Shown one piece after another: positions 8,463 to 27,703 of a DNA stretch of 29,121 nt. The first letter of the stretch is position 1, and each line of letters begins with the position of its first letter. The DNA is from Rhodocyclaceae bacterium (lineage in GTDB: Bacteria > Pseudomonadota > Gammaproteobacteria > Burkholderiales > Rhodocyclaceae). A model generated the notes under the pieces. That model was given only the letters and a program-made list of their open reading frames with translations. It did not search any database and was not told the DNA's origin. The stretch lies in the NCBI GenBank assembly GCA_016791085.1, contig JAEUNN010000345.1:1-29121 (forward strand), written 5' to 3'. The position numbers and the translations under genes were made by a program.

Positions 8463-8526
8463 GGTTTTGCCTCCAGCCGCTTGCATTTCAATTCAGGAAG
8501 TAACACCGCGGCGCCCTTGCGCGCGG

Positions 8527-10322: not shown

Positions 10323-11930
10323 ATGAAATCCACGGTCGCGATCGGTTTTCTCGGCACCACCCTCGATTTCGGCGGCAAAGGCGCGCAACGCTGGGAAAAA
10401 TGGCGCCCGACGGTGGCCCTGTGCCAACAGGAAAATCTGCTCATCCATCGCCTGGAATTGCTGCACGACGCGCGCAGCCGCGGATTGGCCGAGCGCGTGC
10501 GCCTGGACATTGCGGCGGTGTCGCCGGAAACCGAAGTGCGGCGCGTGGAATTGAATTTGCGCGACGCCTGGGATTTCGAGGAGGTATATGGCGCCCTGCT
10601 CGACTACGCGCGCGGCTACGCGTTCGACCCCGAGCGCGAGGACTACCTGATCCACATCACGACCGGCACGCACGTGGCGCAAATATGCTGGTTCCTGCTG
10701 GCCGAGGCGCGCTACTTGCCGGCGCGCCTGGTGCAAACCACGCCGCCGCGCAAACTGGAATCCGATACCAGCGGCACGTATAGCGTGATCGATCTCGATC
10801 TGTCGCGCTACGACCGCATCGCACAACGCTTTGCGCGCGAGCGCGACGCCAGCCTCAGCACCCTGAAAGCTGGCATCGCCACGCGCAATGCGGAATTCAA
10901 TCGCATGATAGAGCGCATCGAACAGGTGGCCGGACGGTCCCGCGCGCCCATGCTGCTGGTCGGCCCGACCGGTGCCGGCAAGTCGTTTCTGGCGCGCCGC
11001 GTCTATGAACTCAAGAAACAGCGCCAGCGCCTGGGCGGACAATTCGTCGAAGTCAATTGCGCCACGCTGCGCGGCGACGCGGCCATGTCGGCGCTATTCG
11101 GCCACGTGAAGGGCGCTTTCACGGGCGCCCAGACGGAACGCCCGGGCCTGTTGCGCGCGGCCGACGGCGGCTTGCTGTTTCTCGACGAAATCGGCGAACT
11201 GGGCCTGGACGAACAGGCCATGCTGCTCAAAGCCGTCGAAGAAAAGCGCTTTTTCCCGTTCGGCGGCGATCGCGAAGCGCAAAGCGACTTCCAGCTTATC
11301 GCCGGCACGCACCGCGACCTGCGCCAGTGGGTGGCGGCCGGGCGTTTCCGCGAAGACCTTTACGCGCGCATCAACCTATGGACTTTCGATCTGCCCGGAC
11401 TGGCCGAGCGGCCGGAAGACCTGGAACCCAATCTCGAATTCGAACTGGCCCGCCACGCCCGCGAACACGGCGAACAGGTGCGCTTCAACCTCGAGGCGCG
11501 CACGCGTTATCTGGATTTTGCAACGTCGGCGCAAGCGCGCTGGCGCGGCAATTTCCGCGAACTGGGCGCATCCGTCACGCGCATGGCCACACTGGCCGTG
11601 GCCGGCCGCATCACCGAACCCTTGGTGCAGGAAGAAATCGGCCGCCTGCGCGCCACCTGGCAGGACGGCACGGCAGCCGACGCCGCGACCCAGGTGCTGG
11701 GAGAAGGCGCGGACGGCCTGGACTGGTTCGACCGCTGCCAGTTGAACGCCGTGATCGAACTATGCCGCGGCAGCAACAGCCTGTCCGATGCCGGACGGCG
11801 CCTGTACGCCATATCGCGCGCCGACAAAAAACAGCCCAACGACGCCGACCGCCTGCGCAAATACCTGGCGCGCTTCGGCCTGGATTTCGAGCGCGCGCGC
11901 GGCCGGAGTGCCGACGCACGAGGTGCCTGA
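10323..11930 (+). CDS. rtcR: Sigma-54-dependent transcriptional regulator RtcR (N-terminal CARF-type sensor domain, central AAA+ sigma-54 activator domain, C-terminal HTH)
   Basis: 535 aa, about E. coli RtcR length. AAA+ motifs: Walker A (PMLLVGPTGAGKSFLARRV), GAFTGA (sigma-54 contact motif), Walker B (GGLLFLDEIGEL), and arginine finger region (FREDLYARINLWTFDLPGLAER). The ~185-aa N-terminus is not a receiver domain and fits the RtcR CARF-like domain. The gene is divergent from the rtcBA operon. Confidence 0.9.
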   Translation: MKSTVAIGFLGTTLDFGGKGAQRWEKWRPTVALCQQENLLIHRLELLHDARSRGLAERVRLDIAAVSPETEVRRVELNLRDAWDFEEVYGALLDYARGYAFDPEREDYLIHITTGTHVAQICWFLLAEARYLPARLVQTTPPRKLESDTSGTYSVIDLDLSRYDRIAQRFARERDASLSTLKAGIATRNAEFNRMIERIEQVAGRSRAPMLLVGPTGAGKSFLARRVYELKKQRQRLGGQFVEVNCATLRGDAAMSALFGHVKGAFTGAQTERPGLLRAADGGLLFLDEIGELGLDEQAMLLKAVEEKRFFPFGGDREAQSDFQLIAGTHRDLRQWVAAGRFREDLYARINLWTFDLPGLAERPEDLEPNLEFELARHAREHGEQVRFNLEARTRYLDFATSAQARWRGNFRELGASVTRMATLAVAGRITEPLVQEEIGRLRATWQDGTAADAATQVLGEGADGLDWFDRCQLNAVIELCRGSNSLSDAGRRLYAISRADKKQPNDADRLRKYLARFGLDFERARGRSADARGA

Positions 11931-12021
11931 GCGGCGTGCAGGCGGTACGGGCCGGGATGGACGGGCGGAGCAAGTATTTGGCGGCCGGCACGCGATGGGA
12001 GCTGAGCCGCGCGCGCAGAAA

Positions 12022-12057
12022 ACGAAAAACGCGCCGGGGGGCGCGTTTTGCTGGAAC
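12022..12057 (+). terminator. Rho-independent terminator downstream of rtcR. It is bidirectional, with a T-run on the minus strand too, and would originally also have terminated tRNA-Ser.
   Basis: GAAAAACGCGCC-GGGG-GGCGCGTTTTGCTGG forms a perfect 10-bp GC-rich stem with a GGGG loop followed by TTTTG. On the minus strand the same stem is followed by GTTTTCT. It abuts the left copy of the 16-bp att repeat. Confidence 0.6.
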
Positions 12058-12073
12058 TTTGGCGGAGAGGGTG
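12058..12073. repeat. Left 16-bp direct repeat (att-like): TTTGGCGGAGAGGGTG, a duplicate of the tRNA-Ser 3' end
   Basis: Identical to 27609-27624. The right copy overlaps the last 14 nt of the intact tRNA-Ser at 27611-27703. Confidence 0.6.
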
Positions 12074-12206
12074 TCCGCGGAGATAGAACTTCCGGCAGTC
12101 CCACAAGGCATCTTTTCAACGCTGTAGCCCTTACCTGCCTTGACTTTGTTGGCTCATGTAGTGCCATAGGCTACCATCCAATCGCACCACCTTAGTTGGG
12201 TAGGAG

Positions 12207-12720
12207 GTGGGGAACAAGGAGATGCGAGCCATGCCAGGCAAAGCAAAGGAACTCTCGGCCCTGGAAGTCTCCCGGCTTACCTCACCAGGTTTGTACGCGG
12301 CGGGGGTCGTCCCCGGTCTGCAACTCCAAGTGACGGCCACCGGAGCACGGACCTGGGTACTGCGAGTATGGGTCGCCGGCAGGCGCCGGGACATGGGGCT
12401 GGGAGGTTATCCCGCCGTGACCCTGGCCATGGCCCGGGAGAAGGCCCGGGAAGCCCGCGACAAGATCGACAGAGGAATTGATCCGATAGGGGAGCGTCGG
12501 GCCGCTCAGAGCACTCTACGCGCCGCCCGTGGTGCTGAGATCACCTTCGAGAAGGCCGCCCAACAGTTCATTGAGGCCAAATCGGCAGAGTGGCGGAACA
12601 CCAAGCACCGGGGCCAATGGGAAGCCACCCTGTCCACCTATGCCTTCCCCGTGATCGGCACCCTCCAGGTTCGGGACGTGGCCCTGCCTCATGTGGTACG
12701 CATTCACAGCCGCGAGATGC
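12207..12720 (+). pseudogene. Truncated P4-family tyrosine integrase. Only the N-terminal ~170 aa (arm-binding DUF4102-like and SAM-like region) is present. The ORF reads on to 13073 through unrelated sequence.
   Basis: N-terminus ...ELSALEVSRLTSPGLYAAGVVPGLQLQVTATGARTWVLRVWVAGRRRDMGLGGYPAVTLAMAREKAREARDKIDRGIDPIGERR...FPVIGTLQVRDVALPHVV is typical of P4-like integrase N-terminal domains. After ~12720 the translation loses all integrase character. No R..HxxR..Y catalytic-domain sequence exists in any frame before the next gene at 13203, and only ~380 nt are available. Confidence 0.65.
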
Positions 12721-13202
12721 CGGCAAGACGCGGTCACCAGGTGACGGCGCTGCTGCTGGGCGAACGGCTAGTCGGGCTCTACAACGGGTCCACCGGGAAG
12801 CAGGTGAATTTTGTTCGAGCCGATCCGCCGCTGCCCTGGCGACGATGCGACGCAGCCGCCGTAGCGGCGCCTTCGGCTGCCAGCATCGCAGCATTCGCAT
12901 TCACAGCGTGGCCCGCCGTGCTGGTCAGCTTGCCGCTCGCGTTGTTATGCCCACCGTTGGTGGTGACGGCGCGCTTCGCCTGGCGCTGTCGCACGCGGGC
13001 ACAGGTTGACCGTGCACTAGACATCGTGAAAGGCCACGATGTCGTGCCACCGCAACTGCGCCGGGTGAAGTAGCGCGACACGGCAGGCAGCGCGCCGCTT
13101 CGCTCTTTGGCTCCCCGCCGTAATGCGCGGGAATGTCGAAGGAATTGTCAGCTCATACATTTCTCTGATACATTTCCTCCGGAATCGACATTTAGGGTAG
13201 CC

Positions 13203-16200
13203 ATGGCCGACAATCTTTTCGCCGTCTGCGAACCACGCGCCGATGTTCTTCAAGGGGCACTGAAGGAGAGCGACTTCGCTGCTGATCTCTCCCAGGTGCT
13301 CCGCGGCGACGCCCCGGACGAGTACAAGAAACCCGAACTGTTCTTCGCGAACACCTACCCGACCAAGGGCCTGAAGAATGTCCTCAAGCTGGTCGCACTG
13401 CGCGTCCTCGGGAGGCCCGAGCAGGTCGGCGCCATCTTCCGCCTCGATACGCAGTTCGGCGGTGGTAAGACGCACACCCTCATCGGCCTCGCACATGCCA
13501 TGCGTGGTCTCGCCGGCGTCCCGAACGCCGATGAGTTCCTGGAGCCGGCCCTTCGCCCGAGCGAACCGATTCGCATCGCCGCCTTCGACGGCGAAAATGC
13601 AGACCCCACCAATGGACGCAGGTTGAGCGACTCCACCCGCGCATTCAGCCCCTGGGGTGAGCTTGCGTTTGCGCTCGCTGGCGAGGCGGGCTACAGGCTC
13701 GTCGAGCAGAGCGACAAGGAAGGCATCGCGCCCGGCGCCGATACCCTGCGTGAACTCCTGGGCACCGACCCGGCGGTCATCCTCATCGACGAAATCGCGC
13801 CCTATCTGCGCAAAGTCGCGGGTCGGAATACGCAGCGAGCCGGCGAGCAACTGCTGGCCTTCATGACTTCGCTGATGAAGGCGGTCGAGAGCCTGCCCAA
13901 AGTCGCTCTCGTCTTCACCCTAGCCGTTGGCCGTGACGGCAAGGCAACCGATGCCTACAGCCGCGAGACGCAGGACATCGCCGCCTTCTTCGCCGAAGCC
14001 GAGAGCGTGGCTGCCCGCAAGGCCACGGTCATCGACCCCACCGAGGACGACGAAACCGTCAAGGTGGTCTGTCGTCGTCTGTTCACTCGCATCGACGAGT
14101 CCAAGGCCAAGCAGGTCGTTGCGGCCTACAAGGCACTCTGGGACGCGAACCGCGAATCACTGCCCACGCCGCCGGCACAAGACCGTCGCGTGGAGGAGTT
14201 CGAGGCTGGCTACCCGCTGCACCCGGAGTTGGTGAAGCTCCTGACCCAGAAGACCGGCACGCTCGGCAACTTCCAGCGCGTGCGCGGCATGCTGCGGCTG
14301 CTGGCGCGCACCGTGGCGCAACTTTGGCAAACCCGGCCCGCCGATGCCTACGCCATCCACACGCATCACATCGACCTTGGTTTCGAGCCCATCCGCCTGG
14401 AGCTGGTCACGCGTCTCAAGCAGGACATCTACGTGCCGGCCATCAAGGCCGAGATCGCCGGCGTGGACCAGAGCTCCGCGCTGGCGGAGCAACTCGATGC
14501 GGGCGCCTTCAAGGGACTGCCAACCTACGGGTCCTATGTCGCGCGCAGTGTCTTCATGCACACACTCGCCTTCAACGACACCCTGCGCGGCCTGAATGCC
14601 GATGAGCTTCGCTACGCCATCCTCGGGCCGGCGACCGACATCGCCTTCATCGACGACGCCCGCAAGCGCTTCATCACCGACTCGGCATACCTCGACGACA
14701 AACCCGGCGCGCCGCTGCGCTTCCTGGCCGAAGCCAACCTCACGCAAATCATCCGGCGTGAGGAGACCAACGTCGACCGCGAAGAGGCCCGGTCGCGCCT
14801 CAATGCCTACATCCGCGACCTGTTCGCCGGCCCCAATCTAAACCTCGTGCCCTTCGCCGCCGGCCCGCACGACATTCCTGATGACGACGGCAGCGGGCGT
14901 CCCTATCTCGCCATGTTGAGCCACGATGCGGTGCAGGTGGTCGGCGATGCCGTCCGCGTTGATACCCTGGTAGAGAAAATCTTTCTTCACCGCGGGACAG
15001 GCAACGACTGGCGGCACAACCGCAACAATCTGGTGTTTGTGGTCGCCGATGCTTCAGGTATCCCGACCATGAAGGCGCGCATGTTGCGCCATTTGGCGCT
15101 CGAGTCGCTGCGCGTGCCAGGCAAGCTCAAGGACCTCGCCGACTACCAGGTCGCCAAGCTGAGCGAGGAGTTCGAGGTCTCGAAGCAACGCCTCGCCCTG
15201 GCGGTCCAGCAGTGCTACCGCCACATCTTCTTCCCCTCGCGCAATCGCGTCGAAGGCGCAAGCTGTGACCTGGCCCACACGGTGGTGGACATTCAGACAG
15301 CCTCGGACCGGCCGGGCGACGGGCAGAAGCAGGTCGTTACGCAGCTCCAGAACGTCAACAAGCTGCGCCTGCCCACCGACCAGCCGGACTCGCCGGTCTA
15401 CGTGCGCGACCGCACGCCGCTCAAGAAGGGGCAAATCACCACCGCCGCACTGCGCAACGAGTTCCGGCAGGACGCCTCCCTGCCGATACTCGTCGGCGAC
15501 GACGTGTTCATCAAGGGCATCCGCCAGGGCATCGACCAAGGCGACTACGTCTACAAGTCCGGCGACCTGCTGCGCGGCAAGGGGGACCCTCACGCCGAAA
15601 TCAAGGTCGACGAGCAGTCCTTCGTATTCACGACGTCGTACGCCGAAGACCACGGTATCTGGCCTCGCCCTGCGCCCACGCCGGCGCCAGCGCCCGCCGG
15701 CGGTGGCGCCTCACCCACCGGCGGACCCGCCTCGGCGCCTTACGGAGCGCCTGCCCCCGGGCCGGCTCCAGCGGCGAATGAGCCAGGTGTCGTCCAGGCC
15801 GAAGACGTGCTCAAGGCCGCGCTGAACCGCGTCTTCGAACAGGCGCGCAACAACGGTGTGCTTACCCTGGGCTCGATGACCATTCGCCCTTTCGACAAGG
15901 GTGACGCCCTCAAACTGATTCCACTGGTCAAATCGGTTCCAAACACCACCAAGCGCATCGAGCTGGAAGCGTCCTTCGAGACGCCGAGCAAGTCGGAAGC
16001 GAGTGTGGCCTTCAAGGGAGACCTCGACGATGCCGCGCCGCTGAAGGACTACCTCGAACCCCAGTTCCGTGCTGCCAGTGACAGCGACGCGAGCGTCACT
16101 TTCATACTGCACTTCGACCCGCCGCTGGCCGTCCAGGGCGCCAGTGCCGACGGCCTCGTCCAGCGCTTGACGCGTCTCGTGTCGCCAGTCGCTCATGTGC

Positions 16201-16229
16201 TCGCCACTGTCGCCGACAAGAAATCCTGA
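13203..16229 (+). CDS. Large P-loop ATPase, DUF499/COG1483-like (BrxC/PglY-like AAA+ ATPase), ~1008 aa, with a Pro/Ala-rich linker before a small C-terminal domain
   Basis: Start is called at MADNLFAV (ATG 13203). The upstream in-frame extension from 13107 is AT-richer, promoter-like DNA. Walker A: RLDTQFGGGKTHTLIGL. Walker B: AVILIDEIAPYL. The >1000-aa size matches DUF499-family ATPases that accompany DUF1156 methylases. Low-complexity PAPTPAPAPAGGGASPTGGPASAPYGAPAPGPAPA linker near the C-terminus. Non-host codon usage. Confidence 0.75.
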   Translation: MADNLFAVCEPRADVLQGALKESDFAADLSQVLRGDAPDEYKKPELFFANTYPTKGLKNVLKLVALRVLGRPEQVGAIFRLDTQFGGGKTHTLIGLAHAMRGLAGVPNADEFLEPALRPSEPIRIAAFDGENADPTNGRRLSDSTRAFSPWGELAFALAGEAGYRLVEQSDKEGIAPGADTLRELLGTDPAVILIDEIAPYLRKVAGRNTQRAGEQLLAFMTSLMKAVESLPKVALVFTLAVGRDGKATDAYSRETQDIAAFFAEAESVAARKATVIDPTEDDETVKVVCRRLFTRIDESKAKQVVAAYKALWDANRESLPTPPAQDRRVEEFEAGYPLHPELVKLLTQKTGTLGNFQRVRGMLRLLARTVAQLWQTRPADAYAIHTHHIDLGFEPIRLELVTRLKQDIYVPAIKAEIAGVDQSSALAEQLDAGAFKGLPTYGSYVARSVFMHTLAFNDTLRGLNADELRYAILGPATDIAFIDDARKRFITDSAYLDDKPGAPLRFLAEANLTQIIRREETNVDREEARSRLNAYIRDLFAGPNLNLVPFAAGPHDIPDDDGSGRPYLAMLSHDAVQVVGDAVRVDTLVEKIFLHRGTGNDWRHNRNNLVFVVADASGIPTMKARMLRHLALESLRVPGKLKDLADYQVAKLSEEFEVSKQRLALAVQQCYRHIFFPSRNRVEGASCDLAHTVVDIQTASDRPGDGQKQVVTQLQNVNKLRLPTDQPDSPVYVRDRTPLKKGQITTAALRNEFRQDASLPILVGDDVFIKGIRQGIDQGDYVYKSGDLLRGKGDPHAEIKVDEQSFVFTTSYAEDHGIWPRPAPTPAPAPAGGGASPTGGPASAPYGAPAPGPAPAANEPGVVQAEDVLKAALNRVFEQARNNGVLTLGSMTIRPFDKGDALKLIPLVKSVPNTTKRIELEASFETPSKSEASVAFKGDLDDAAPLKDYLEPQFRAASDSDASVTFILHFDPPLAVQGASADGLVQRLTRLVSPVAHVLATVADKKS

Positions 16230-16240
16230 GGAACTAGGCC

Positions 16241-16729
16241 ATGACTACTCGACGCGCGCATGTGGTCGCACTCCCCCGCAAGGCCGCCTCCGCACTGCCG
16301 CACTACGAGCTCCGCGCCAAGCGGCAGCGGGGCTCCGACATGGCCCTCGAAATCTGGCAACTGCCGGCAAGTGCGACGCCTCACATCAAACAGCCCACCT
16401 ATGTGGCGGGGCTGCACGGCCGTAACCTCTCGCTGGTTGAGCATCGCTTGCTGCGCCGCCTGAAGGCCGTGCGCATCAACCTCAACGATTTGCCGGCCAT
16501 CGACGCCTTGCGAGTCCCCATCGACGAGGAACTCGCCATCAACCTTGGCCTGCTTTTCCGTTCCCTGGCGCCGATGCGTAACCGTGACCACATGGCCGCG
16601 GTGGCGGCCGGCATCGAGGTCATGACCAAGGAAGAGGCCGGTTACTGGCTCGGCATGGCAATGCATCGCAAATATCCGCGCCGCGTGCTGATGGCACTGC
16701 GCTTCCTGCTCATCGAACCGACCCACTGA
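16241..16729 (+). CDS. Small conserved hypothetical protein (162 aa) between the ATPase and the COG2865 gene. Positionally equivalent to the DUF3780-type partner of DUF499/DUF1156 systems.
   Basis: GAGGAA 6 nt upstream of ATG. 12-nt gap after the ATPase stop and 7-nt gap before the next gene. Island codon usage. The family assignment is by position only and is not verifiable from sequence here. Confidence 0.45.
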   Translation: MTTRRAHVVALPRKAASALPHYELRAKRQRGSDMALEIWQLPASATPHIKQPTYVAGLHGRNLSLVEHRLLRRLKAVRINLNDLPAIDALRVPIDEELAINLGLLFRSLAPMRNRDHMAAVAAGIEVMTKEEAGYWLGMAMHRKYPRRVLMALRFLLIEPTH

Positions 16730-16736
16730 AGGTGGC

Positions 16737-18482
16737 ATGCGCGAACTGACTGAGGTCCGTGCGCTGCTGACGCGTCTCGACGAGGTCGAAGCGGATGCAC
16801 TGGAATCGCAGGACCTCGACTTCAAGGAGTGGCCCGCCGATCACCGGCATGCCATCCGGCTGGCAGTCGACATGGCGGTCTGCATGGCCAATGGTGGCGG
16901 CGGCACGGTTGTTCTGGGGGTGCGCGACCGTGTGGTCGGGCGCTCCCAGGCGATTCTCGGCGTCCCTGCGACCGCGGACCCGCACCAACTGAAGCGTGAC
17001 ATCTACGAACGCACCGCGCCGAAGCTCACTCCCGAGGTTGTGGAGCTTGCCGTCCCGGAGGGCACCGGGCGCCTGTTCTTGATGCAGGTACATGGCGGCC
17101 TGCCACCGTACACCACTACCGCCGGCGCCGGCACCGTCCGGCGCGGCAAGGACTGTGTGCCCCTCACCGGTGACCTGCGCGACCGCCTGATGGTCGAGCG
17201 CGGCGACTCGGACGTAACTGCCGTTGCCGTCGCAGAGCCGGTCGAATCGCTGCTGTCGGCCGCGGCGCTCGAACGGCTGCGCGACTTGGCCCGCCAGGAG
17301 CAGGCGCCGGCAGACATGTTGCGCAAGTCCGACCTCGATCTGCTCGGCGCGCTCGAAGTTCTGCGTGATGGCCGGCTCACCAAGGCCGGTCTGCTCATCG
17401 CCGGCAATGCCGACGCCATTGCTCGTCACCTGCCTAACTACTCATGGACGCACGAGCGCATGAAGAGCGCCACTGCCTACGTGGACCGCGCCGACGGGCG
17501 CGATACGCGAGAGCTCGCTCTGCCACTCGCCCTGCAGGCGCTCGAATCGCGCATCAACGCCGACAACCCCATCACCACCGTCGAGCACGGCCTGCATCAC
17601 TTCGAATTCCGCGCGTACCCCACGGTGGCGCTGCGCGAGGCGCTGCTCAATGCCTTGTGCCACCTGGACTTGCGGCTCGCCAGCCCAGTGCTGGTCAAGC
17701 AGTTCCCGCGCAAGCTCGAAATCAGCAACCCCGGCGGCCTGGTGGGCGGCATCACGCCGGCCAACATCCTTCACCACCCGCCGCTTGCGCGCAACCCCTT
17801 GCTGGTGCATGCACTGTCGAAGCTGCGCTTGGTGAACCGCAGCAATCTCGGCATTGGCCGCATGTTCGAGGCGATGCTCATCGAGGGCAAGGAGCCGCCG
17901 CTCATCGTCGATGAGGAAAGCGCCGTTCGCGTCGTTTTCAAGCGGCAGGAGACTTCAGCGTCGTTCCGCGAGTTCATCGCCGACGAAGGCAAGGCCGGCC
18001 GGGTGCTGGACGTCGACCACCTGCTGGTGCTGAGCTACCTGCTAGGGCATGGCGAGATCGACACGGCTGCGGCCGCAGAACTCTGCCAGCGGCGTGATGC
18101 CGAGATGCGCGACATCCTCGACGAAATGGTGCAGGTCTACGACTACCTGGAACGCGGCGGCGCCGGGCGCGGCACTTGGTGGCGCCTGAAGCCCGCCTTG
18201 CACCGGCGGCTTGAAGGCGCCGGCCATGCCGAGCGGGACCAGCGCATCGACATCGACGTGGCCAAGACCCGTGTGCTCAACATGCTGAAGCAACGGCAGC
18301 AGCGCGGGCAGGCGGGTCTGTCGAACGCCGAGGTTCGCGAGGTGACCGGCTACACACGACAACAGGTCAACCGGCTGATACACGAACTGGAAGCAGAGTC
18401 TGTGCGCATGGTTGGGCACGGACGCGGTGCCCGATACGAATACGTCGGCTCAGTGCCGGCAAAGAAGACCAAGAGTTCATGA
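16737..18482 (+). CDS. COG2865-type protein: N-terminal AlbA_2/Schlafen-like putative DNA-binding domain + HATPase_c_4-like domain + C-terminal HTH (581 aa)
   Basis: AAGGTGG RBS. The architecture (N-terminal ~120-aa Schlafen-box-like region VRALLTRLDEVEADALESQDLDFKEW..., central region ...LREALLNALCHLDLRLASPVLVKQFPRKLEISNPGGLVGGIT..., C-terminal ...LSNAEVREVTGYTRQQVNRLIHELEAES... HTH) matches the defence-island-associated 'predicted transcriptional regulator with Schlafen-like domain' family. The stop overlaps the methylase start (ATGATGA). Confidence 0.7.
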   Translation: MRELTEVRALLTRLDEVEADALESQDLDFKEWPADHRHAIRLAVDMAVCMANGGGGTVVLGVRDRVVGRSQAILGVPATADPHQLKRDIYERTAPKLTPEVVELAVPEGTGRLFLMQVHGGLPPYTTTAGAGTVRRGKDCVPLTGDLRDRLMVERGDSDVTAVAVAEPVESLLSAAALERLRDLARQEQAPADMLRKSDLDLLGALEVLRDGRLTKAGLLIAGNADAIARHLPNYSWTHERMKSATAYVDRADGRDTRELALPLALQALESRINADNPITTVEHGLHHFEFRAYPTVALREALLNALCHLDLRLASPVLVKQFPRKLEISNPGGLVGGITPANILHHPPLARNPLLVHALSKLRLVNRSNLGIGRMFEAMLIEGKEPPLIVDEESAVRVVFKRQETSASFREFIADEGKAGRVLDVDHLLVLSYLLGHGEIDTAAAAELCQRRDAEMRDILDEMVQVYDYLERGGAGRGTWWRLKPALHRRLEGAGHAERDQRIDIDVAKTRVLNMLKQRQQRGQAGLSNAEVREVTGYTRQQVNRLIHELEAESVRMVGHGRGARYEYVGSVPAKKTKSS

Positions 18483-21457
18483 TGACCCGACGACTGATTG
18501 AAGATTGGCTGCCGATCGCGGCGCTGGGAGAAGAGAGCGTGCGCGAGCGGAGGTCTATGACCGCATTGCCGCCAACGTACTACCTCCATGTTTGGTGGGC
18601 ACGTCGCCCGCTGGTGGCCTCGCGTGCGGCGATCCTGGCCTCGTTGCTGCCGGGGGATGCCGACCAGGATAAGTTCCTGCACATGCTGGGGATACATGGG
18701 GACCCCGTTGCGGCGAAGAAACGAATTGCAAAGGCCACTCGTGACGGTGTTCGGCTTGGTGCGGATGCTTACGGCTATTCCCGAGCATTCTCATATTCGC
18801 CAACAGACGAGGAACGAAGCTGGTTCACCGATGAGGTGTCGCGCATCGTCGCGGTAGCACCTGCCGTACTTGATCCGACTGCCGGGGGCGGGAGCATTCC
18901 ATTTGAAAGCGCCAGGCTCGGCTTGACGACGATTGGCAACGACCTCAACCCGGTCGCATCACTCATTGGGCGTGCCACGATCGAACTGCCCATCAAGCAC
19001 GGTCAGGCGGTGCGGCTGGAAATGCTGCGCTTGGGCAAAGTTTTGGTGGAGTGTGTGCGGGAACGTCTTGCCTTCGCCTATCCCGACGAACCAGTAGCCG
19101 ATACGCGTCCAGACGGTTATCTCTGGGCACGCACTGTTCGCTGCCCCCACTGCGAGGGGCTGGTGCCCCTTTCCCCCAACTGGCGCCTGGCACCGGACGG
19201 CACCGGGGTGCGGCTCGAACCGCACAAGGGCAGCGGGCCAGGCGACGCCGCGCGCCACATCCGCTTCCAGATCGTCGCCAAGGTGCAGGAGCAGTCCGCG
19301 GGCACTGTCTCAGGCGGCGACGCCACCTGCCCCTTCGATGACTGCGGGCGGCTGATTTCCGGCGACCACATCCAGGCCGAGGCCCAGGCGGGACGGATGG
19401 GTGAGCAACTCTTTACCGTGGTGTTCAAGAAAAAGGTCATTACCGGCTACACCAAGGCTGGCAAGCCCAAGGAGAAATGGGTGCGCGGCTACCGCGCGCC
19501 CCGGCCCGAGGACGACGTTTCAGAACAGGTTGCGGCAACGCTGGCAGAGAAGCTGCCGGAGTGGGAGGCGCTGGACGTCATCCCTACGGAGAGAGTTCCC
19601 GAGGGACACAAAACTGGAAGCGGTCACGGAGACGGTACCGACCTGCCGCTCAAGCGCGGTGAGACGCACTGGATCCACATGTTCTCGCCCCGCCAGTTGC
19701 TCGGCCACGGTACCGCCGTCGAGGTGTTCCGGGAGCTAATCGAGGAGGAGAAGGCTGCAGAGCGCTGGAGCGAACTGACAGCGGCGGCGTTCTGCTACTT
19801 GTCCTTTTCGTTCGACAAACTGCGCGACTACAACTCACGCATGACGCGCTGGCACGTCAACCGCGAGGTCGTGGTCAATACTTTCGACCGTCACGATTTC
19901 GCTTTCAAGTGGTCCTACGCCGAGATGGCCCCGCTTATCGTCGGCCTGGGCTACGACTGGGCCATCGAGCAGACCGCCAAGTGCATCGGCGAATTGGTGG
20001 AACTGGTGCGACCGGACGCCAAGACCGCCGAGAGCGGCCAGGCCGGTTTCGATTTCGACCATCCGCGCAAAGGTTTTACGCCACCTCCGGTCACCCTTAG
20101 CTGCAAGTCCGGCGACAGCCTGGACCACATTGCCGATGCCAGCATCGACGCAGTCGTGATGGACCCACCCTACTACGATAACGTGATGTACGCCGAGTTG
20201 TCCGACTTCTTCTACGTCTGGCTCAAGCGCACCGCCGGCTATGTCTATCCCGAGTTGTTCCGCCGCCCGCTCACCGACAAGGAAAACGAGGCAGTCGCCA
20301 ACCCCGCCAAGTTCAAGGGTGAAAAGGGCGCCAAAGCGCTGGCCGGGCGCGACTACCAGCACCGCATGGCGGCCATCTTCACCGAGATGCGCCGGGTATT
20401 GAAGCCCGACGGCATCATGACCCTGATGTTCACCCACAAGGCCACCGGCGCCTGGGACGCGCTCACCACCGGCTTGATGGAAGCGGGTTTCGCGATCACG
20501 GCGTCCTGGCCGATCAACACCGAGGCCGAAGGCAGCCTGCATATCAAGGACAAATCGGCGGCCAACTCCACAGTGTTCCTGGTGTGCCGGCCACGCACGG
20601 ACAACGGAGACGACGTCCGCTATTGGGAAGACATCGAGCCCACGGTACGGCAGGCCGTCCGGAGCCGCATCGCGCAGTTCCAGCAGGGCGGCATCCGCGG
20701 CGTGGACCTATACCTCTCTTGCTTCGGTCCTGCGCTCGAAGCTTTCTCGCAACACTGGCCGCTCAAACGCGGTACGCCTCGACAGAACATCGAGCAGGCG
20801 CGCCGGCGCAAGCGGCAGAGCGAGATTTTCGAAGAGGAGTACGACCCCTACGCCGTCACCCCGGAGGACGCGCTGGAAGTGGCGCGCCGCGAGGTGAAGG
20901 ACTGGCGCCTGCATCAGATCACGCATGCACAGCGCAACGTCGAACTCGACAACCTGACCAGTTGGTTCGTGCTGGCCTGGGATGCCTTCGAAGCGCCCGT
21001 GTTTCCGTACGACGAAGCGAATCGGCTTGCGAAGGTGTGCGGCATCGATCTCGACCGCGATGTCGTGGGCAAGCTGGCGGAAAAGAAGGGTTCCGATCTC
21101 GTCCTTTGGGACAGCGTAACCCGCGCAGCGAAGGGGTCGCTGGGACTACCGGATGGGCGTGGCTCGATGATGGACGCGCTGCACCACCTCGCACGGGCAA
21201 CGCGGTCGGCGTCGCTCGAATCCGCCAATGAACTGCTCGCCAAGCACAGCCTGGCCAGCGAGCCGAGCTTTCTGGTTGCGCTGGAAGCGGTGCTCGAAGT
21301 GCTGCCGGTCGGCAAGGAGTGGAGCGGCCTCGATCTTCCCGATACGGCCCAGGGCGCCGGCGCCGACTTCGATGCGCTCGAGAAGCTGCGACGCCTGGCA
21401 TTGGCCGAGACGATTGCCGAACCCGAGCAGCTTAGGATTTGGCAAGAGGAGGTCTGA
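18479..21457 (+). CDS. DUF1156/COG1743-type adenine-specific DNA methyltransferase with Zn-ribbon (992 aa)
   Basis: N-terminal YYLHVWWARRPL (the WWARRP signature I associate with DUF1156). Motif I: VLDPTAGGGSIPFESARLG. Cys pairs RCPHCEG ... ATCPFDDCG form a Zn ribbon. Catalytic motif IV: AVVMDPPYYDN (DPPY, an amino-methyltransferase signature). The start ATG overlaps the upstream stop. Confidence 0.85.
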   Translation: MMTRRLIEDWLPIAALGEESVRERRSMTALPPTYYLHVWWARRPLVASRAAILASLLPGDADQDKFLHMLGIHGDPVAAKKRIAKATRDGVRLGADAYGYSRAFSYSPTDEERSWFTDEVSRIVAVAPAVLDPTAGGGSIPFESARLGLTTIGNDLNPVASLIGRATIELPIKHGQAVRLEMLRLGKVLVECVRERLAFAYPDEPVADTRPDGYLWARTVRCPHCEGLVPLSPNWRLAPDGTGVRLEPHKGSGPGDAARHIRFQIVAKVQEQSAGTVSGGDATCPFDDCGRLISGDHIQAEAQAGRMGEQLFTVVFKKKVITGYTKAGKPKEKWVRGYRAPRPEDDVSEQVAATLAEKLPEWEALDVIPTERVPEGHKTGSGHGDGTDLPLKRGETHWIHMFSPRQLLGHGTAVEVFRELIEEEKAAERWSELTAAAFCYLSFSFDKLRDYNSRMTRWHVNREVVVNTFDRHDFAFKWSYAEMAPLIVGLGYDWAIEQTAKCIGELVELVRPDAKTAESGQAGFDFDHPRKGFTPPPVTLSCKSGDSLDHIADASIDAVVMDPPYYDNVMYAELSDFFYVWLKRTAGYVYPELFRRPLTDKENEAVANPAKFKGEKGAKALAGRDYQHRMAAIFTEMRRVLKPDGIMTLMFTHKATGAWDALTTGLMEAGFAITASWPINTEAEGSLHIKDKSAANSTVFLVCRPRTDNGDDVRYWEDIEPTVRQAVRSRIAQFQQGGIRGVDLYLSCFGPALEAFSQHWPLKRGTPRQNIEQARRRKRQSEIFEEEYDPYAVTPEDALEVARREVKDWRLHQITHAQRNVELDNLTSWFVLAWDAFEAPVFPYDEANRLAKVCGIDLDRDVVGKLAEKKGSDLVLWDSVTRAAKGSLGLPDGRGSMMDALHHLARATRSASLESANELLAKHSLASEPSFLVALEAVLEVLPVGKEWSGLDLPDTAQGAGADFDALEKLRRLALAETIAEPEQLRIWQEEV

Positions 21458-21458
21458 C

Positions 21459-24400
21459 TTGCCACTGCTGACCGACTACGACTGGCGCAGCAAGTACGAC
21501 CCCGATGATGGAACACTCATCGAGCAGTTCTACCTGACCGCCCTTGCCTGCGCACAGCGCTACGACCGCACCACCGGCTATTTCAGCGCAACCGCGCTTG
21601 CTATCGCAGCACGCGGCATTGAAGGTCTCGTGCTCAATGCCGGCCGCATGCGCATGGTGGTGGGTTGCACGCTCGGGCAGCCGGAAGTGGACGCCATCGA
21701 GCAAGGCCAGTCGCTCAAGGACACCGTGGCCGGCATGCTGCTGGCCATGCCTCTGATTAGCACCAGCAAGGGCGATAAGGAGGCCCTTGAACTGATGGCC
21801 TGGATGGTTGCCAAGGGACACCTCGAAATCAAGGTGGCCGTGCCCTGCGACGAGAATCGCAACCCGGTCACGTCGAACGCCATCTTCCACGAGAAGACGG
21901 GTGTCATGGAGGACAAGACCGGTAACCGGCTTGCATTCGCCGGCAGCATCAACGAGACGGCCTACGGGTGGTTGCACAACTGGGAGAGCTTTCACGTCTT
22001 CTGCGACTGGGATGGCGGTACCAAGCATGTGGATGCCGAGGAGCGGACATTCGCGCAGTTGTGGGCCGACAAATCCAGGCGCGCAAAGGTGCTCGACGTG
22101 CCGGCGGCAGTACGGGAGGATCTGCTGCGCTTCATGCCGGCCGACGACCAGGAACCGGAACGGCTGAAACGCGCCCGAGCCGAGGGACCGGCGCCCGAGG
22201 TTACGAACACCGAGGGGACCAAGGCCACTCCCACCAGCCCGCGAGCCGGTGTCGACGAGACGCGCAAACAGGTCTGGAACACCATCTGGGGCGCCCCGCA
22301 ATTGCCCGGCGGTGAGCGCATCGCCGAGGTGACGAGTGCCATCACGCCGTGGCCCCACCAGGTGCGCGCGTTCGATCGCATGGTTGGCAACTGGCCACCC
22401 AGGCTGCTCATCGCCGACGAAGTAGGCCTGGGAAAGACCATCGAAGCGGGCATGCTGTTGCGTTACGCTTGGCTATCCGGCCGGGCGAAGCGCATCCTGG
22501 TGCTCGCCCCGAAGGCCGTGATGACGCAGTGGCAGATTGAGCTACGCGAGAAGTTCAACCTCAACTGGCCGATCTACGACGGCAAGGCGCTCAATTGGTA
22601 CCCGTCTCCGCTGATGAAGGGGCACCAGGAACGCGACGCTTCGCGGGACGATTGGCACCGAGAGCCTTTCGTCATCGCCTCGAGCCACTTGATGCGTCGG
22701 CGAGACCGGCAGCGCGAGCTGCTCGAGGTTGCCGAGCCGTGGGACCTGATCGTTCTGGACGAGGCGCATCACGCTCGGCGCAAGAGCCCTGGCGCGACCA
22801 AGGAAGGACCGCCCAACCTGCTGCTGCAATTGATGCAGAAGCTGAACGCGCGGACGCAAGGGCTGCTGCTGTTGACGGCGACGCCGATGCAGGTGCACCC
22901 GGTGGAAGTGTGGGACCTGCTCGTCCTGCTGGCCATGCCGGCTGCGTGGTCGCGGGGTGCCTTTCTGGAATTCTTTCGCAAGTCCGGCGACGGCAATCCG
23001 TCGCCCGAGGACTTCGAGATGCTGGCGGCGCTGTTCCGTGCAGCCGAGGCTGCGTTCGGCACGATGCCGATGGACGTCGCGGTGCGGCGCACGGCAGGCA
23101 AGAGCCGCCTCAAAGCGCAGAAGGTACTGCGTGCGCTGCGCGACACCGCTGCCACGCCGCGGCGGCAGCTCTCCGCCGAGGAACGGCGCAGTGCCGTGGC
23201 CATCATGCGTGCCCACACGCCAGTGGCTGGCCTGATTTCCCGCCATACGCGCGACCTGCTGCGCGAATACCACCGCCGCGGAATGATAGCCTCGCCTATC
23301 GCCAACCGGATGGTAGTCGACGAGTTCCTCGACATGACGAAGGTCGAGGAGGAGGTGTACGGGGCGCTGGAGGACTACATCTCCACGACCTATAACAACG
23401 CCGCCCAGGACAAGCGCAGCGCGGTTGGCTTCGTGATGACCACCTATCGCAAGCGCTTGGCATCAAGCTTCTACGCGCTGCGCAAGACGCTTGAGGAACG
23501 GCTCGGCGTAGTCGCCGGGCAGGCGAGCTTGCCGTTCGATCAGCTTCGAACCGCCGAAGACGCCGAGGACGACGAGGACGAGAGCGGCGACCAGGCCGAT
23601 GACGACGTCGTGGCGGCGCAGAAGCTTGTCGCCCTCAACCTGGAGGAGAGCGGCGAGATTGAGCGGTTGTTGGCCCAAGTTCGCCGTCTGCCGGTGGACA
23701 GCAAGGCCATCCGCCTGGCGGAGGTACTGCGCTCGCTGCAGGCTGGCAGCTTCCATGCGATGGACAACACGCTGCTGCCACCGTACCCGCAGGCCATCGT
23801 GTTCACGCAGTACACCGATACGCTCGACTACCTGCGCGACTACCTGAAGGGCGAGGGCTTCTCCATCCTGTGCTATTCAGGGCGCGGCGGTGAATGGTTG
23901 CTGCCGGACGGGCGGTGGAAGAACTTGTCACGTGAGGAGACCAAGAGGCGATTCCGTCGTGGCGATGCCCAGGTGCTGGTCTGTACCGACGCGGCGGCCG
24001 AAGGCCTGAACTTCCAGTTCTGCGGCGCGCTCATCAACTTCGATTCTCCATGGAACCCCATGCGGGTGGAGCAGCGCATCGGCCGTGTCGACCGGCTGGG
24101 CCAACGCTTCGAGCGCATCGCCGTCGTGAACCTGATGTACGAAGACACGGTTGAGACCGATGTGTACCGGGCTCTGCGCACGCGCATCAACTTATTCACC
24201 GCCGTGGTCGGGCGGCTGCAGCCGATTCTTTCGACGATGCCGCAGCGCATCGCCGCCGTGGCATTAACCGGCCCGGACGGGCGTCAGCAGGCAAGAGCGA
24301 ATCTCATCTCCCACCTTCAACATGAAGCGGCGGCACCTGCACCGGAGTCGTTCGATATCGACGACGCCATCGACGCGGCGCTCGAGATGGGCGACAGGCC

Positions 24401-24680
24401 TCCCGCGCCGTACGACCTGGAAGACCTCGGCCGCCTGCTCGACCACCAGAAGCTGCTACCGCCGGGATGCGAAGCCCAGCGGGCCAACTCGAAGGACGTG
24501 TTCTGGATTCAGCCCGGCGCGCCCAAGGTGGCGGTGACCACAGATCCCGAGTTCTTCGAAGAGCATGCTGACTCGCTGGAGTTCTGGACGCCGGGAAGCC
24601 CAGCGTTCCCCGGCCCAAGCCTCTCGGAAGGCTTCACGGCCGAACCGGTGCGCTTGAGCGAACTGCTGCGCTCTTCATGA
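21459..24680 (+). CDS. PLD-family nuclease domain fused to SNF2/SWI2-family helicase (~1073 aa), TTG start
   Basis: The ORF tracker starts at 21228, overlapping the methylase by 230 nt. In-frame TTG at 21459, with GAGG 7 nt upstream and 1 nt after the methylase TGA, is the likely start (LPLLTDYDW...). The N-terminal region has a PLD HKD-type motif FHEKTGVMEDKTGNRLAFAGSIN (H-x-K-x4-D ... GSxN). SNF2 helicase motifs: I LLIADEVGLGKTIEAG, II LIVLDEAHHARR, V-VI VLVCTDAAAEGLNFQFCGALINFDSPWNPMRVEQRIGRVDRLGQ. Confidence 0.85.
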   Translation: MPLLTDYDWRSKYDPDDGTLIEQFYLTALACAQRYDRTTGYFSATALAIAARGIEGLVLNAGRMRMVVGCTLGQPEVDAIEQGQSLKDTVAGMLLAMPLISTSKGDKEALELMAWMVAKGHLEIKVAVPCDENRNPVTSNAIFHEKTGVMEDKTGNRLAFAGSINETAYGWLHNWESFHVFCDWDGGTKHVDAEERTFAQLWADKSRRAKVLDVPAAVREDLLRFMPADDQEPERLKRARAEGPAPEVTNTEGTKATPTSPRAGVDETRKQVWNTIWGAPQLPGGERIAEVTSAITPWPHQVRAFDRMVGNWPPRLLIADEVGLGKTIEAGMLLRYAWLSGRAKRILVLAPKAVMTQWQIELREKFNLNWPIYDGKALNWYPSPLMKGHQERDASRDDWHREPFVIASSHLMRRRDRQRELLEVAEPWDLIVLDEAHHARRKSPGATKEGPPNLLLQLMQKLNARTQGLLLLTATPMQVHPVEVWDLLVLLAMPAAWSRGAFLEFFRKSGDGNPSPEDFEMLAALFRAAEAAFGTMPMDVAVRRTAGKSRLKAQKVLRALRDTAATPRRQLSAEERRSAVAIMRAHTPVAGLISRHTRDLLREYHRRGMIASPIANRMVVDEFLDMTKVEEEVYGALEDYISTTYNNAAQDKRSAVGFVMTTYRKRLASSFYALRKTLEERLGVVAGQASLPFDQLRTAEDAEDDEDESGDQADDDVVAAQKLVALNLEESGEIERLLAQVRRLPVDSKAIRLAEVLRSLQAGSFHAMDNTLLPPYPQAIVFTQYTDTLDYLRDYLKGEGFSILCYSGRGGEWLLPDGRWKNLSREETKRRFRRGDAQVLVCTDAAAEGLNFQFCGALINFDSPWNPMRVEQRIGRVDRLGQRFERIAVVNLMYEDTVETDVYRALRTRINLFTAVVGRLQPILSTMPQRIAAVALTGPDGRQQARANLISHLQHEAAAPAPESFDIDDAIDAALEMGDRPPAPYDLEDLGRLLDHQKLLPPGCEAQRANSKDVFWIQPGAPKVAVTTDPEFFEEHADSLEFWTPGSPAFPGPSLSEGFTAEPVRLSELLRSS

Positions 24681-24696: not shown

Positions 24697-26079
24697 ATGA
24701 CAACCTCTGACGACAAGAAGCTCACCGACCGGCAACTGCTCGGCAGCCAGGGCACCAGTCTCATTGATCTGGTCGTATCAAGAATGGGTTTTGTCTGGCG
24801 ATCGACGGCACAGCACGACGCGGGTATCGACGGCGAGATTGAAGTCAGGGACCCGTCGACTGGCCGCATGACGGGCCTGCTCATCAAGGTGCAGAGCAAG
24901 GCGGTCTCGACCTTCGCTAACGAGACCGACGAGAGTTTCGACTACTGGCCGGAAGAGCGCGACATGCGCTACTGGCTGGGCCACAACCTGCCCGTCATCT
25001 TGGTCGTGTCCCAACCTGCGACAGGAAGCATCTACTGGCTCCCGGTGCGGGAGCAGACCTCCTCAGCAAACTCTAAGCGCTTCCACTTCCTCAAGGCCAG
25101 CGACCGCCTTGACGAGGGAGCCCGGGGGCGACTGATTCAGTTGGCGCAGAGCGCTGGCCAGGGCGCGGTGGCTCCGGCGCTGGCGAAGCACGAGCAGTTA
25201 ATCAGCAATCTGTTGCCGGTCGTCCGGCTGCCCGATCGCCTGTACCTGGCGGAAACGAAATTTCGGAGTGGCAAGGAGATTGGCGACCTGCTGAGGGAAA
25301 TGAACCAGCGGGCCGACACTGAAACCACGACGGGCGCAAGGACCGTTCGTCCCGAGCTACGCGTCGAATTCGTGCTCAAGAACAAGCGCATTCTGACTGT
25401 TCGCGACCTCACCGACCCGCGCTATGAGTTCCTGTGCGACCGTGGAACCGTGGAGGACTTCCCCACATCCGAGTGGGCCCTCGCAGCGGACGCGGAAAAG
25501 CAACGTGACTTCGTGCACCTCCTGAACCAGTGCCTCCGAGAGATGCTTCGCGGCATGCCGGAGCATCTGTGGTTCGACCGCGGTGCGAGGTGCTTCTTCT
25601 TCCCTCCGTCACGCGACCGGAAGCCTTACGACTACGCGTACCGCGGCGCCAAGAAGGAGACGGTCCGAGAGGTGTTCAAGGAGCGCATCAACAAGAGCAA
25701 AGGCCACGTCATGGGCTACCGACATAGCGCGATGATTGCCCAATTCTACCGGTACGACGGGTCGTGGTACCTCGAAGTGACACCTACCTACTTCTTCACC
25801 AAGGACGGCGCCCAGAAGAGCAAGTGGCACGAAGAATGGCTGAAGGGCATCAAGGAACTTGAGAAGAACCAGGCAGTGCGCGGCCAGCTTCTCATGTGGG
25901 CCGACCTACTGGTGGAGGTCCCGGACCTCCTTAGTGATGGGTATCCGTTCCTGAGGTTCGGTCCGCCGACTACGTTCTCGACCGAGCGCGGGATCGACGA
26001 TACGGCATGGGCGGCCTCTGACTCGAGCGGAAAATCGGGGATTCCCGATGGCACCGCTCCACTGTTCGAGCTGCTCTGA
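24697..26079 (+). CDS. DUF4365 (DREN, PD-(D/E)xK-like nuclease) domain protein, 460 aa. Candidate DREN-APAZ partner of a short prokaryotic Argonaute (SPARDA-like).
   Basis: N-terminus LGSQGTSLIDLVVSRMGFVWRSTAQHDAGIDGEIEVRD...GLLIKVQSKAV...HNLPVILVV carries the D-GID-x-E ... VQSK pattern of DUF4365/restriction-endonuclease-like fold. The ~300 residues after the nuclease domain are compatible in size with an APAZ domain; APAZ identity is not verifiable by eye. The stop overlaps the downstream start (TGATG). Confidence 0.55.
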   Translation: MTTSDDKKLTDRQLLGSQGTSLIDLVVSRMGFVWRSTAQHDAGIDGEIEVRDPSTGRMTGLLIKVQSKAVSTFANETDESFDYWPEERDMRYWLGHNLPVILVVSQPATGSIYWLPVREQTSSANSKRFHFLKASDRLDEGARGRLIQLAQSAGQGAVAPALAKHEQLISNLLPVVRLPDRLYLAETKFRSGKEIGDLLREMNQRADTETTTGARTVRPELRVEFVLKNKRILTVRDLTDPRYEFLCDRGTVEDFPTSEWALAADAEKQRDFVHLLNQCLREMLRGMPEHLWFDRGARCFFFPPSRDRKPYDYAYRGAKKETVREVFKERINKSKGHVMGYRHSAMIAQFYRYDGSWYLEVTPTYFFTKDGAQKSKWHEEWLKGIKELEKNQAVRGQLLMWADLLVEVPDLLSDGYPFLRFGPPTTFSTERGIDDTAWAASDSSGKSGIPDGTAPLFELL

Positions 26080-27608: not shown

Positions 27609-27624
27609 TTTGGCGGAGAGGGTG
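27609..27624. repeat. Right 16-bp direct repeat (att-like) TTTGGCGGAGAGGGTG, overlapping the tRNA-Ser 3' end
   Basis: Perfect copy of 12058-12073. Includes the CCA-end and 3' acceptor strand of the tRNA. Confidence 0.6.
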
Positions 27625-27703
27625 GGATTCGAACCCACGTGCCGGTGTTACCCGACCATCCGATTTCGAGTCGGCGCCGTTATGACCGCTTCGGTACCTC
27701 TCC
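27611..27703 (-). tRNA. tRNA-Ser (anticodon CGA), type II with long variable arm, encoded CCA
   Basis: Minus strand: GGAGAGG-TA-CCGAAGCGGTCATAACGG-CGCCGA-CUCGAAA-UCGGA-long variable arm-CGTGGGTTCGAATCCCACC-CCTCTCC-G-CCA. 7-bp acceptor stem. Anticodon loop CU-CGA-AA. T-loop TTCGAAT. ~93 nt. Confidence 0.9.

Follow-up and report, generated by a model that had tools for sequence, protein, structure and literature searches.

A probable MANTIS-like, BREX-related cassette with DUF7680 in place of DUF3780 on a tRNA-Ser island of a Rhodocyclaceae bacterium

Genomic neighbourhoods that combine a DUF499 AAA+ ATPase (ORC/Cdc6-STAND type), an N6-adenine methyltransferase that has a DUF1156 helical domain at its N-terminus plus a target-recognition insert, and a Swi2/Snf2 helicase have been classified as BREX-related (BR) systems centred on DUF499 (PMC12839542). 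In type 1 (= Hma), the helicase features a Tudor domain at its N-terminus and, C-terminally, a PD-(D/E)XK (NOV_C/DUF3883) nuclease; in type 2, an HKD nuclease is located at the helicase's N-terminus and a stand-alone DUF3780 gene is present; type 3 has PglZ and an inactive STAND protein in addition (PMC12839542). The helicase-nuclease of Hma protects against phage T4, and the Hma operon is an insertion hot spot for other defence genes (PMC11232893). Type 2 is Gao_RL (Gao_29), which was shown to restrict phages and was renamed MANTIS in a mechanistic and structural study released as a preprint in September 2026 (bioRxiv 10.64898/2026.09.23.753747). In the present work, a five-gene cassette at positions 13203-24680 of a 29,121-bp contig (60-70% G+C; the whole stretch is called “the window” below) from a metagenome-assembled genome (MAG) of a Rhodocyclaceae bacterium was compared with these systems. 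The cassette is quite probably a divergent MANTIS-like (type-2 BREX-related) system that forms a separate deep lineage, with DUF7680 for DUF3780.

Methylation by MANTIS involves MtsA, an AAA+ ATPase that loads the MtsC methyltransferase onto asymmetric sites of 6 bp; MtsB, a small basic protein that forms dimers, is required for methyl transfer, ATP hydrolysis leads to turnover, and only one strand of each site is methylated (bioRxiv 10.64898/2026.09.23.753747). All four proteins are needed for restriction, which favours unmodified sites paired in inverted orientation, and MtsD is a dimeric, SauUSI-like PLD-SF2 motor (same preprint). The role of MtsB was called unclear there, and alternative proteins may fill it in related systems. 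The MtsB family is named DUF3870 in the preprint, compared to DUF3780 (PF12635) in the Nucleic Acids Research paper and in the NCBI annotation of canonical operons; “DUF3870” is probably a typographical error.

The five genes of the window cassette are co-directional and tightly packed on the + strand:

13203-16229, + strand: DUF499 AAA+ ATPase (MtsA/HmaC/BrxC-like), 1008 aa, ATG start; Pfam DUF499, 3e-34
16241-16729, + strand: small basic protein, 162 aa, isoelectric point (pI) 10.85; Pfam DUF7680, 2e-42
16737-18482, + strand: Schlafen (AlbA_2) nuclease domain, HATPase_c_4 (minimal histidine-kinase-like ATPase) and C-terminal winged helix-turn-helix (wHTH), 581 aa; assigned with Pfam
18479-21457, + strand: DUF1156 N6-adenine DNA methyltransferase (MtsC/HmaB-like), 992 aa; Pfam DUF1156, 7.5e-15
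21459-24680, + strand: PLD(HKD)-SNF2 helicase-nuclease (MtsD-like), 1073 aa, TTG start with AGGAGG 7 nt upstream; assigned with Pfam and PADLOC

An initial annotation of this DNA had placed five same-strand genes at 13203-24680, and all five open reading frames (ORFs) were found there. Its spacings of 7, -4 (an ATGA overlap) and 1 nt were reproduced, and the first gap, given as 12 nt, was measured as 11 nt. Every motif that it named was located in the translated proteins, and the Pfam search returned the DUF499, SLFN_AlbA_2, HATPase_c_4, DUF1156, SNF2-rel_dom and Helicase_C domains. Its view of the genes as a methylation-based, restriction-modification-like defence cassette was judged right. 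Its statement that such modules had no experimental characterisation or mechanism was out of date, given the BR classification (PMC12839542) and the work on Hma (PMC11232893) and Gao_RL/MANTIS (bioRxiv 10.64898/2026.09.23.753747). The NCBI labels for these genes are only “ATP-binding protein”, “DEAD/DEAH box helicase” and “hypothetical”.

The closest described relative in overall organisation was MANTIS/Gao_RL. The four core genes occur in the same order in both, and each large protein is homologous to its counterpart and collinear with it over the full length; in NCBIfam, the Gao_RL equivalog model was the best or sole match of all three. The canonical DUF3780-type operon of locus L008, a Lichenicola plasmid, was used as the reference. 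In BLASTP, the window helicase was collinear with the Gao_RL helicase of L008 (27% identity over 940 alignment columns, PLD domain included). The HKD motif is HEKTGVMED...GSIN at aa 144-165 (nt 21888-21953; ...GSINET to aa 167), and the region was aligned as HEKTGV...AFAGSINETAYGW in the window helicase with HGKAGV...AFMGSVNETASGW in Gao_RL, such that HxK...GSxNET is common to both. The nuclease motif that had been read into this protein was thus upheld by its alignment with the PLD domain of the canonical helicase, although the PLDc_2 match itself was sub-threshold (21.4 bits; Pfam cut-off 27). The motor was identified by Pfam (SNF2-rel_dom 4e-17, Helicase_C 1e-19, ResIII); the SNF2 core spans approximately nt 22344-24233, and motifs I, II, III and VI are GLGKT (residue 323), DEAH (434), TATP (473) and QRIGRVDRLGQ (872). 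Among PADLOC models, PLD_Helicase (9e-72) scored above HmaA. No NOV_C or other C-terminal nuclease was detected in the window helicase with Pfam, whereas the type-1 helicase of Thermus (L090) has NOV_C (2e-18). Because of the N-terminal HKD domain and the lack of NOV_C, the architecture is type-2-like.

Both nucleotide-binding motifs of the ATPase are intact (Walker A GGGKTH, aa 86-91, nt 13458-13475; Walker B ILIDEI, aa 193-198, nt 13779-13796), and the protein was 24% identical to the Gao_RL ATPase of L008 over 738 aligned columns (BLASTP). A TTG start at 13107 was considered for this gene and rejected in favour of the ATG at 13203, since, in the shorter form, the alignment to the HmaC profile starts at residue 8. 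A Pro/Ala/Gly-rich linker (aa 821-862, nt 15663-15788) precedes a variable C-terminal domain. In close relatives, the C-terminal ca. 145 aa are the least conserved part of the ATPase (48-75% identity, compared to 80-93% elsewhere).

The methyltransferase (26% identity to that of L008 by BLASTP) features WWARRP at aa 39-44, motif I (DPTAGGGS) at aa 132-139 (nt 18872-18895) and motif IV (DPPY) at aa 562-565 (nt 20162-20173). A four-Cys Zn ribbon (CPHC, aa 222-225; CPFDDC, aa 284-289; nt 19142-19345) is located in the central target-recognition insert. The order of motif I, Zn-ribbon insert and DPPY is that of the alpha group, as given for MtsC. Solved structures were searched by sequence with the four core proteins and a DUF3780 profile; no MtsA, MtsB or MtsC was found, and the helicase matched generic SNF2 proteins only (RapA and others).

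The presence of DUF7680 in place of DUF3780 is the one feature that sets this locus apart. The initial annotation had remarked that a small DUF3780 gene is common in such cassettes; a small gene is indeed present, but the encoded 162-aa protein was assigned to DUF7680 and had no DUF3780 match in the Pfam search. No PADLOC model (even at E = 10) and no NCBIfam model matched it. DUF7680 occupies the operon position that MtsB (DUF3780) has in MANTIS operons: the stand-alone small gene between the ATPase and methyltransferase genes encodes DUF7680 here and DUF3780 in type 2. The two families were modeled independently with AlphaFold2 (pLDDT 81 for DUF7680 and 82 for DUF3780). The DUF7680 model has the predicted element order b-b-b-a-(a)-b-a-a-a-a, and the DUF3780 model shares both order and register. 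The predicted elements are as follows (residue ranges in the AlphaFold2 models):

Strand 1: DUF7680 21-28; DUF3780 18-23
Strand 2: DUF7680 34-41; DUF3780 31-36
Strand 3: DUF7680 53-59; DUF3780 49-55
Helix 1: DUF7680 60-76; DUF3780 57-78
Short extra helix: DUF7680 81-86; DUF3780 none
Strand 4: DUF7680 89-94; DUF3780 88-93
Helix 2: DUF7680 96-109; DUF3780 94-107
Helix 3: DUF7680 115-126; DUF3780 112-124
Helix 4: DUF7680 130-142; DUF3780 127-141
Helix 5: DUF7680 146-158; DUF3780 151-162

A non-significant hhalign alignment of the two families fell in the same register as this matching of elements. It paired EEA-YWLGM...PRRVL-ALR-LL of DUF7680 with PEERWWL-TM...GWRKAVRFALTE of DUF3780, such that the motifs EE-x-[YW]-W-L and A-[LV]-R-x-x-L coincided. 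The pI of 10.85 was compared with the “strongly positive surface” given for MtsB (bioRxiv 10.64898/2026.09.23.753747). Thus, because of the common operon slot, the four strands and five main helices predicted in matching order and register, and the basic pI, DUF7680 is taken as the positional counterpart of MtsB and probably, as far as the models indicate, its structural counterpart: in both systems a small basic protein with a matching predicted alpha+beta layout would accompany the three large ones. No paper that mentions DUF7680 was found in the literature search.

To examine the recurrence of the module, 185,579 species were scanned with one genome per species, and locus statistics were taken from the 80 best loci. 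A DUF7680 relative was encoded in 530 stretches of these genomes. In separate searches at E <=0.001, DUF7680 relatives numbered 1748 clusters at 90% identity, and a profile search returned 487 representatives of 50%-identity clusters. A DUF499 ATPase gene was immediately upstream of the DUF7680 gene in 76 of the 80 loci. The ATPase, methyltransferase and PLD-helicase were all seen in 50, and most of the remainder end at contig edges. The five-gene order was identical in three Burkholderia pseudomallei genome contexts, and the four core genes were also located on plasmids of Aminobacter, Nostoc and the archaeon Haloarcula. The arrangement is therefore not a chance one, given the recurrence of the five-gene order in B. 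pseudomallei and the near-constant ATPase-DUF7680 adjacency, and the expectation that the module would recur as a conserved neighbourhood held. Within this lineage, BLASTP scores for the ATPase were 988 bits (Aminobacter) and 287 bits (Haloarcula), and those for the helicase were 1077 (Aminobacter), 643 (Nostoc) and 412 bits (Haloarcula). On the Haloarcula pelagica plasmid (L091, 9953-20419), the DUF499, DUF7680, DUF1156 and PLD-helicase genes form an operon in which the DUF7680 protein has 205 aa; a divergently oriented gene for a 1338-aa N-6 DNA methylase adjoins it.

The comparison with Hma yielded evidence on both sides. Hma also combines a DUF499 ATPase, a DUF1156 methyltransferase and an SNF2 helicase-nuclease, and its operon likewise collects other defence genes. 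Were the cassette an Hma/type-1 system, the nuclease of the helicase itself would be the effector and a small subunit would not be required. The top PADLOC models of two window proteins favour this assignment: HmaC for the ATPase (5e-94, 314 bits) and HmaB for the methyltransferase (2e-71, 239 bits) scored above the Gao_RL-type models DUF499 (1e-36, 124 bits) and DUF1156_MTase (7e-51, 171 bits). The ATPase was also closer in BLASTP to the HEPN-DUF499 protein of Thermus (type 1; 199 bits) than to the Gao_RL ATPase (86 bits). However, the hallmarks of type 1 are an N-terminal Tudor domain and a C-terminal NOV_C, and the window helicase instead bears an HKD domain at its N-terminus and lacks NOV_C. 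This helicase aligned with the type-1 Thermus helicase over the motor core only (104 + 79 bits), whereas its alignments with Gao_RL helicases (185-206 bits) were full length. Furthermore, Hma has no small subunit, and the DUF7680 lineage conserves one: the small gene between the ATPase and methyltransferase genes in 76/80 loci is a type-2 trait. An assignment to Hma is accordingly considered improbable. As judged from these sequence comparisons, the lineage is distinct from the studied Gao_RL lineage, with a type-1-like ATPase in a type-2-like architecture.

Other PADLOC and NCBIfam matches pointed to type-3 BREX, class-1 DISARM or the phosphorothioation-dependent Pbe system. The helicase matched BrxHI (8e-81), PbeA (1e-72) and DrmD (8e-70) in PADLOC and DISARM_DrmD (286 bits) in NCBIfam, and the methyltransferase matched PglXI (4e-19). 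The BrxH, DrmD and PbeA matches reflect the common SNF2 core and PLD domain, and the DISARM_DrmD score is far below its cut-off of 610 bits. Neither Pfam nor PADLOC revealed PglZ, BrxA/B/L, an inactive STAND protein, DrmA/DrmB (DUF1998), a separate DrmC or dnd/ssp among the genes of the surrounding island (described below) or of the window. All three assignments were rejected for want of these defining partners, and together they are regarded as very remote; the contention that the locus is neither BREX nor DISARM therefore stands. Type-3 BREX (BrxC, PglXI, BrxHII, PglZ, BrxA, BrxF) does have a homologous ATPase/methyltransferase/helicase triad and self-marking by adenine methylation (PMC12839542), but the window lacks PglZ, BrxA and BrxB/F, and its helicase bears its own PLD nuclease.

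The Schlafen gene, absent from the MANTIS core, is inserted between the DUF7680 and methyltransferase genes; no MtsR-like repressor gene was seen upstream of the cassette, in a further difference from MANTIS. Pfam matches of the Schlafen protein were SLFN_AlbA_2 (2e-12), HATPase_c_4 (1e-15) and MarR_2 (1e-4, below its cut-off; a weak MarR-type wHTH). The catalytic Ex4(E/D)xK motif is intact (ESQDLDFK, aa 23-30), a second motif, GGGGTVVLGVRD, is located at aa 53-64, and the GG...GVxD element is kept. An AlbA_2 nuclease with Ex4(E/D)xK followed by HATPase_c_4 and wHTH is the HisKinase-HTH class, the commonest architecture of prokaryotic Schlafen proteins (pSlfns), comprising 19% of them; the pSlfn defenders that have been tested are DUF262 and Ig-like fusions. 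Schlafen-kinase-wHTH genes embedded in BREX/BR loci have already been listed as auxiliary effectors, in at least 1017 taxa (PMC12839542).

Homologues of the Schlafen protein, counted at >=45% identity, occurred in 21 of the 80 loci, mostly in Betaproteobacteria, plus some purple sulfur bacteria and one Rhodospirillaceae MAG. An integral regulatory or sensor subunit, as the initial annotation had suggested, might trigger RNA cleavage once restriction is sensed to have failed, or might control expression of the operon via the wHTH. Such a role could be imagined from the position and retention of the gene: a 7-nt gap separates it from the DUF7680 gene, and its end overlaps the start of the methyltransferase gene by 4 nt (ATGA); in the complete loci that contain it, it was always in this slot (11/11); and it has persisted throughout the betaproteobacterial clade, as well as in some gamma- and alphaproteobacteria, with 57-91% identity. 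That reading is unlikely, since the gene is absent from 59/80 DUF7680-type loci, including contiguous four-gene operons (7/80), the overlap is replaced by a 58-nt gap in B. pseudomallei, and the homologue of locus L032 is upstream of the ATPase gene instead. Elsewhere, the DUF7680-to-methyltransferase and methyltransferase-to-helicase slots hold AAA_15/AAA_21 ATPases, STAND-like AAA, Fic, GmrSD, NOV_C nuclease, SAM methyltransferase and DUF3422 genes (loci L026, L036, L039, L051, L076, L080, L023 and L085). Because of this patchy presence, the filling of the slot by unrelated defence-type genes, the four-gene operons and the loss of the overlap, the Schlafen gene looks like exchangeable accessory cargo in an operon hot spot, not a core subunit. 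The initial annotation had called it an extra component, with which its distribution agrees. Its exchangeability matches the “auxiliary and backup effector” reading (PMC12839542) and the insertion hot spot of Hma (PMC11232893). The protein would most likely be a second-layer (backup) abortive-infection RNase.

Among close relatives, the methyltransferase was the least conserved component (76-78% identity, compared to 85-91% for the others). The variation was concentrated in aa 81-400, with 42-47% identity at aa 81-120, 161-200 and 361-400; the catalytic C-terminal part was 92-96% identical. This localised variation fits a specificity-determining central insert as in MtsC. If the cassette functioned as MANTIS does, the ATPase would load the methyltransferase onto short asymmetric sites, the small basic protein would stimulate methyl transfer, and methylation of one strand of each host site would constitute the self mark. 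The same ATPase/small-protein/methyltransferase assembly may recognise unmodified sites on incoming DNA, which would allow translocation and cleavage by the dimeric PLD-SNF2 motor; the sequence specificity would be set by the variable central insert of the methyltransferase. SauUSI-type enzymes, proposed as the structural and mechanistic analogue of MtsD (bioRxiv 10.64898/2026.09.23.753747), also have a PLD nuclease fused to an SF2 motor. In contrast to these autonomous enzymes, which target modified DNA, the window effector is predicted to depend on the ATPase and methyltransferase and to target unmodified DNA.

Several observations weigh against a MANTIS-like placement. The three large proteins share only 24-27% identity with the studied type (ATPase 24, methyltransferase 26, helicase 27) and were far below the NCBIfam equivalog cut-offs (DUF499_antiphage, 172 of 1200 bits; DUF1156_antiphage, 246 of 1000; phospholipD_antiphage, 361 of 1100), that is, 7 to 3 times too low for equivalog-level membership. 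The ATPase is nearer to the type-1 Thermus protein than to Gao_RL ATPases, so the subtype placement is ambiguous. DUF7680 and DUF3780 had no BLASTP match to one another. Their profile-profile comparison by hhalign, carried out with small alignments and then with alignments enlarged to 183 and 121 sequences, gave probabilities of 1-2% and E values of 0.025-0.057, which were not significant even with the larger sets; the small protein thus differs from MtsB in having no detectable sequence similarity to it. Even for MANTIS, the nuclease activity of MtsD has yet to be reconstituted in vitro (bioRxiv 10.64898/2026.09.23.753747). Finally, the literature search yielded no published defence phenotype or trigger for a HisKinase-wHTH Schlafen. 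A divergent MANTIS-like system nonetheless remains the preferred reading, at the strength given at the outset.

Upstream of the cassette, approximately 30 nt before the ATPase start, a promoter-like site was noted:

13145-13174, + strand: TTGTCA-18-TACATT, with TG; consensus match only

Two promoter-like matches were found in 16 kb, no more than in shuffled sequences; both are directly upstream of the first gene. No terminator-like site was found on the + strand between the five genes.

The cassette is cargo of a 15.5-kb island that is integrated at tRNA-Ser and bounded by exact repeats. The remaining features of the island are:

12058-12073: left copy of the 16-bp direct repeat TTTGGCGGAGAGGGTG, an att-like island end, identical to the 3' end of tRNA-Ser
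12207-13073, + strand: integrase remnant with Arm-DNA-bind_3 and Phage_int_M only, no catalytic domain
24697-27527, + strand: DUF4365 (Mrr-like nuclease)-APAZ gene and an overlapping short prokaryotic Argonaute gene, SPARDA-type (PADLOC 4e-145 and 1e-171)
27609-27624: right copy of TTTGGCGGAGAGGGTG, inside the 3' end of tRNA-Ser(CGA)
27611-27703, - strand: tRNA-Ser(CGA), the 3' end of which is the right repeat copy

The island is probably no longer self-mobile. The SPARDA-type pair follows the helicase stop codon at a distance of 16 nt, and no terminator-like site intervenes. Because none of the 89 related loci carries the short Argonaute pair (0/89), the cassette and the Argonaute system are viewed as neighbours and not as a conserved unit. 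This setting bears on whether the cassette might be a non-immune epigenetic or DNA-maintenance module: ATP-dependent methylation could in principle serve regulation, and the defence role of the lineage is assigned by analogy. Set against that proposal are the location of the cassette next to a short Argonaute system on an island integrated at a tRNA gene, operon slots that collect GmrSD, AAA_21 and Fic-type defence genes, the occurrence of DUF7680-type cassettes on plasmids, and the restriction of phages and plasmids by homologous architectures. A non-immune function is accordingly deemed highly improbable.

Outside the island, the window contains rtcR with a divergent operon including rtcB and rtcA, as well as PEP carboxylase, a chemoreceptor and serS. 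Read along the - strand, the operon divergent from rtcR comprises a tRNA-like RNA (between rtcR and the protein-coding genes), then Band_7 and treble-clef zinc-finger (zf_Tbcl) genes, then rtcB and rtcA. The tRNA-like RNA (9926-10039, - strand) scored 39.2 bits against the Rfam tRNA model; its anticodon arm is shortened, and ARAGORN did not call it. Its score against YrlA (Y RNA-like) was sub-threshold (25.8 bits; gathering score 69). The rtc RNA-repair operon lacks a Ro60 gene, and the RNA may be an element of it that resembles Y RNA or tRNA. The long ORFs at 6540-8633 (+), 6082-8232 (-) and 11057-12127 (+) had no Pfam match and overlap real genes on the opposite strand or in a different frame; they are high-G+C artefacts, not genes.

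A more far-reaching view, offered tentatively and thought less likely than otherwise, is that the DUF7680 cassettes are a fourth, undescribed BREX-related subtype with a type-1-like ATPase and a type-2-like HKD helicase. Their small subunit would be either an MtsB homologue that has diverged beyond sequence recognition or an independent replacement, and in the betaproteobacterial branch the embedded Schlafen RNase would be functionally linked to the restriction module, for a two-layer defence of restriction and abortive infection. No description of the DUF7680-type variant was found in the literature. Since the kind of system is known, the main value of the MANTIS-like placement is a corrected classification; the curated Gao_RL models miss the DUF7680 lineage. 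This widespread lineage is a natural comparison for MtsB, the least understood component of MANTIS, and the features common to DUF3780 and DUF7680 (basic charge, the predicted four-strand/five-helix layout and two motifs) mark residues worth mutating. The variable slot inserts make the lineage a useful hunting ground for accessory defence genes.

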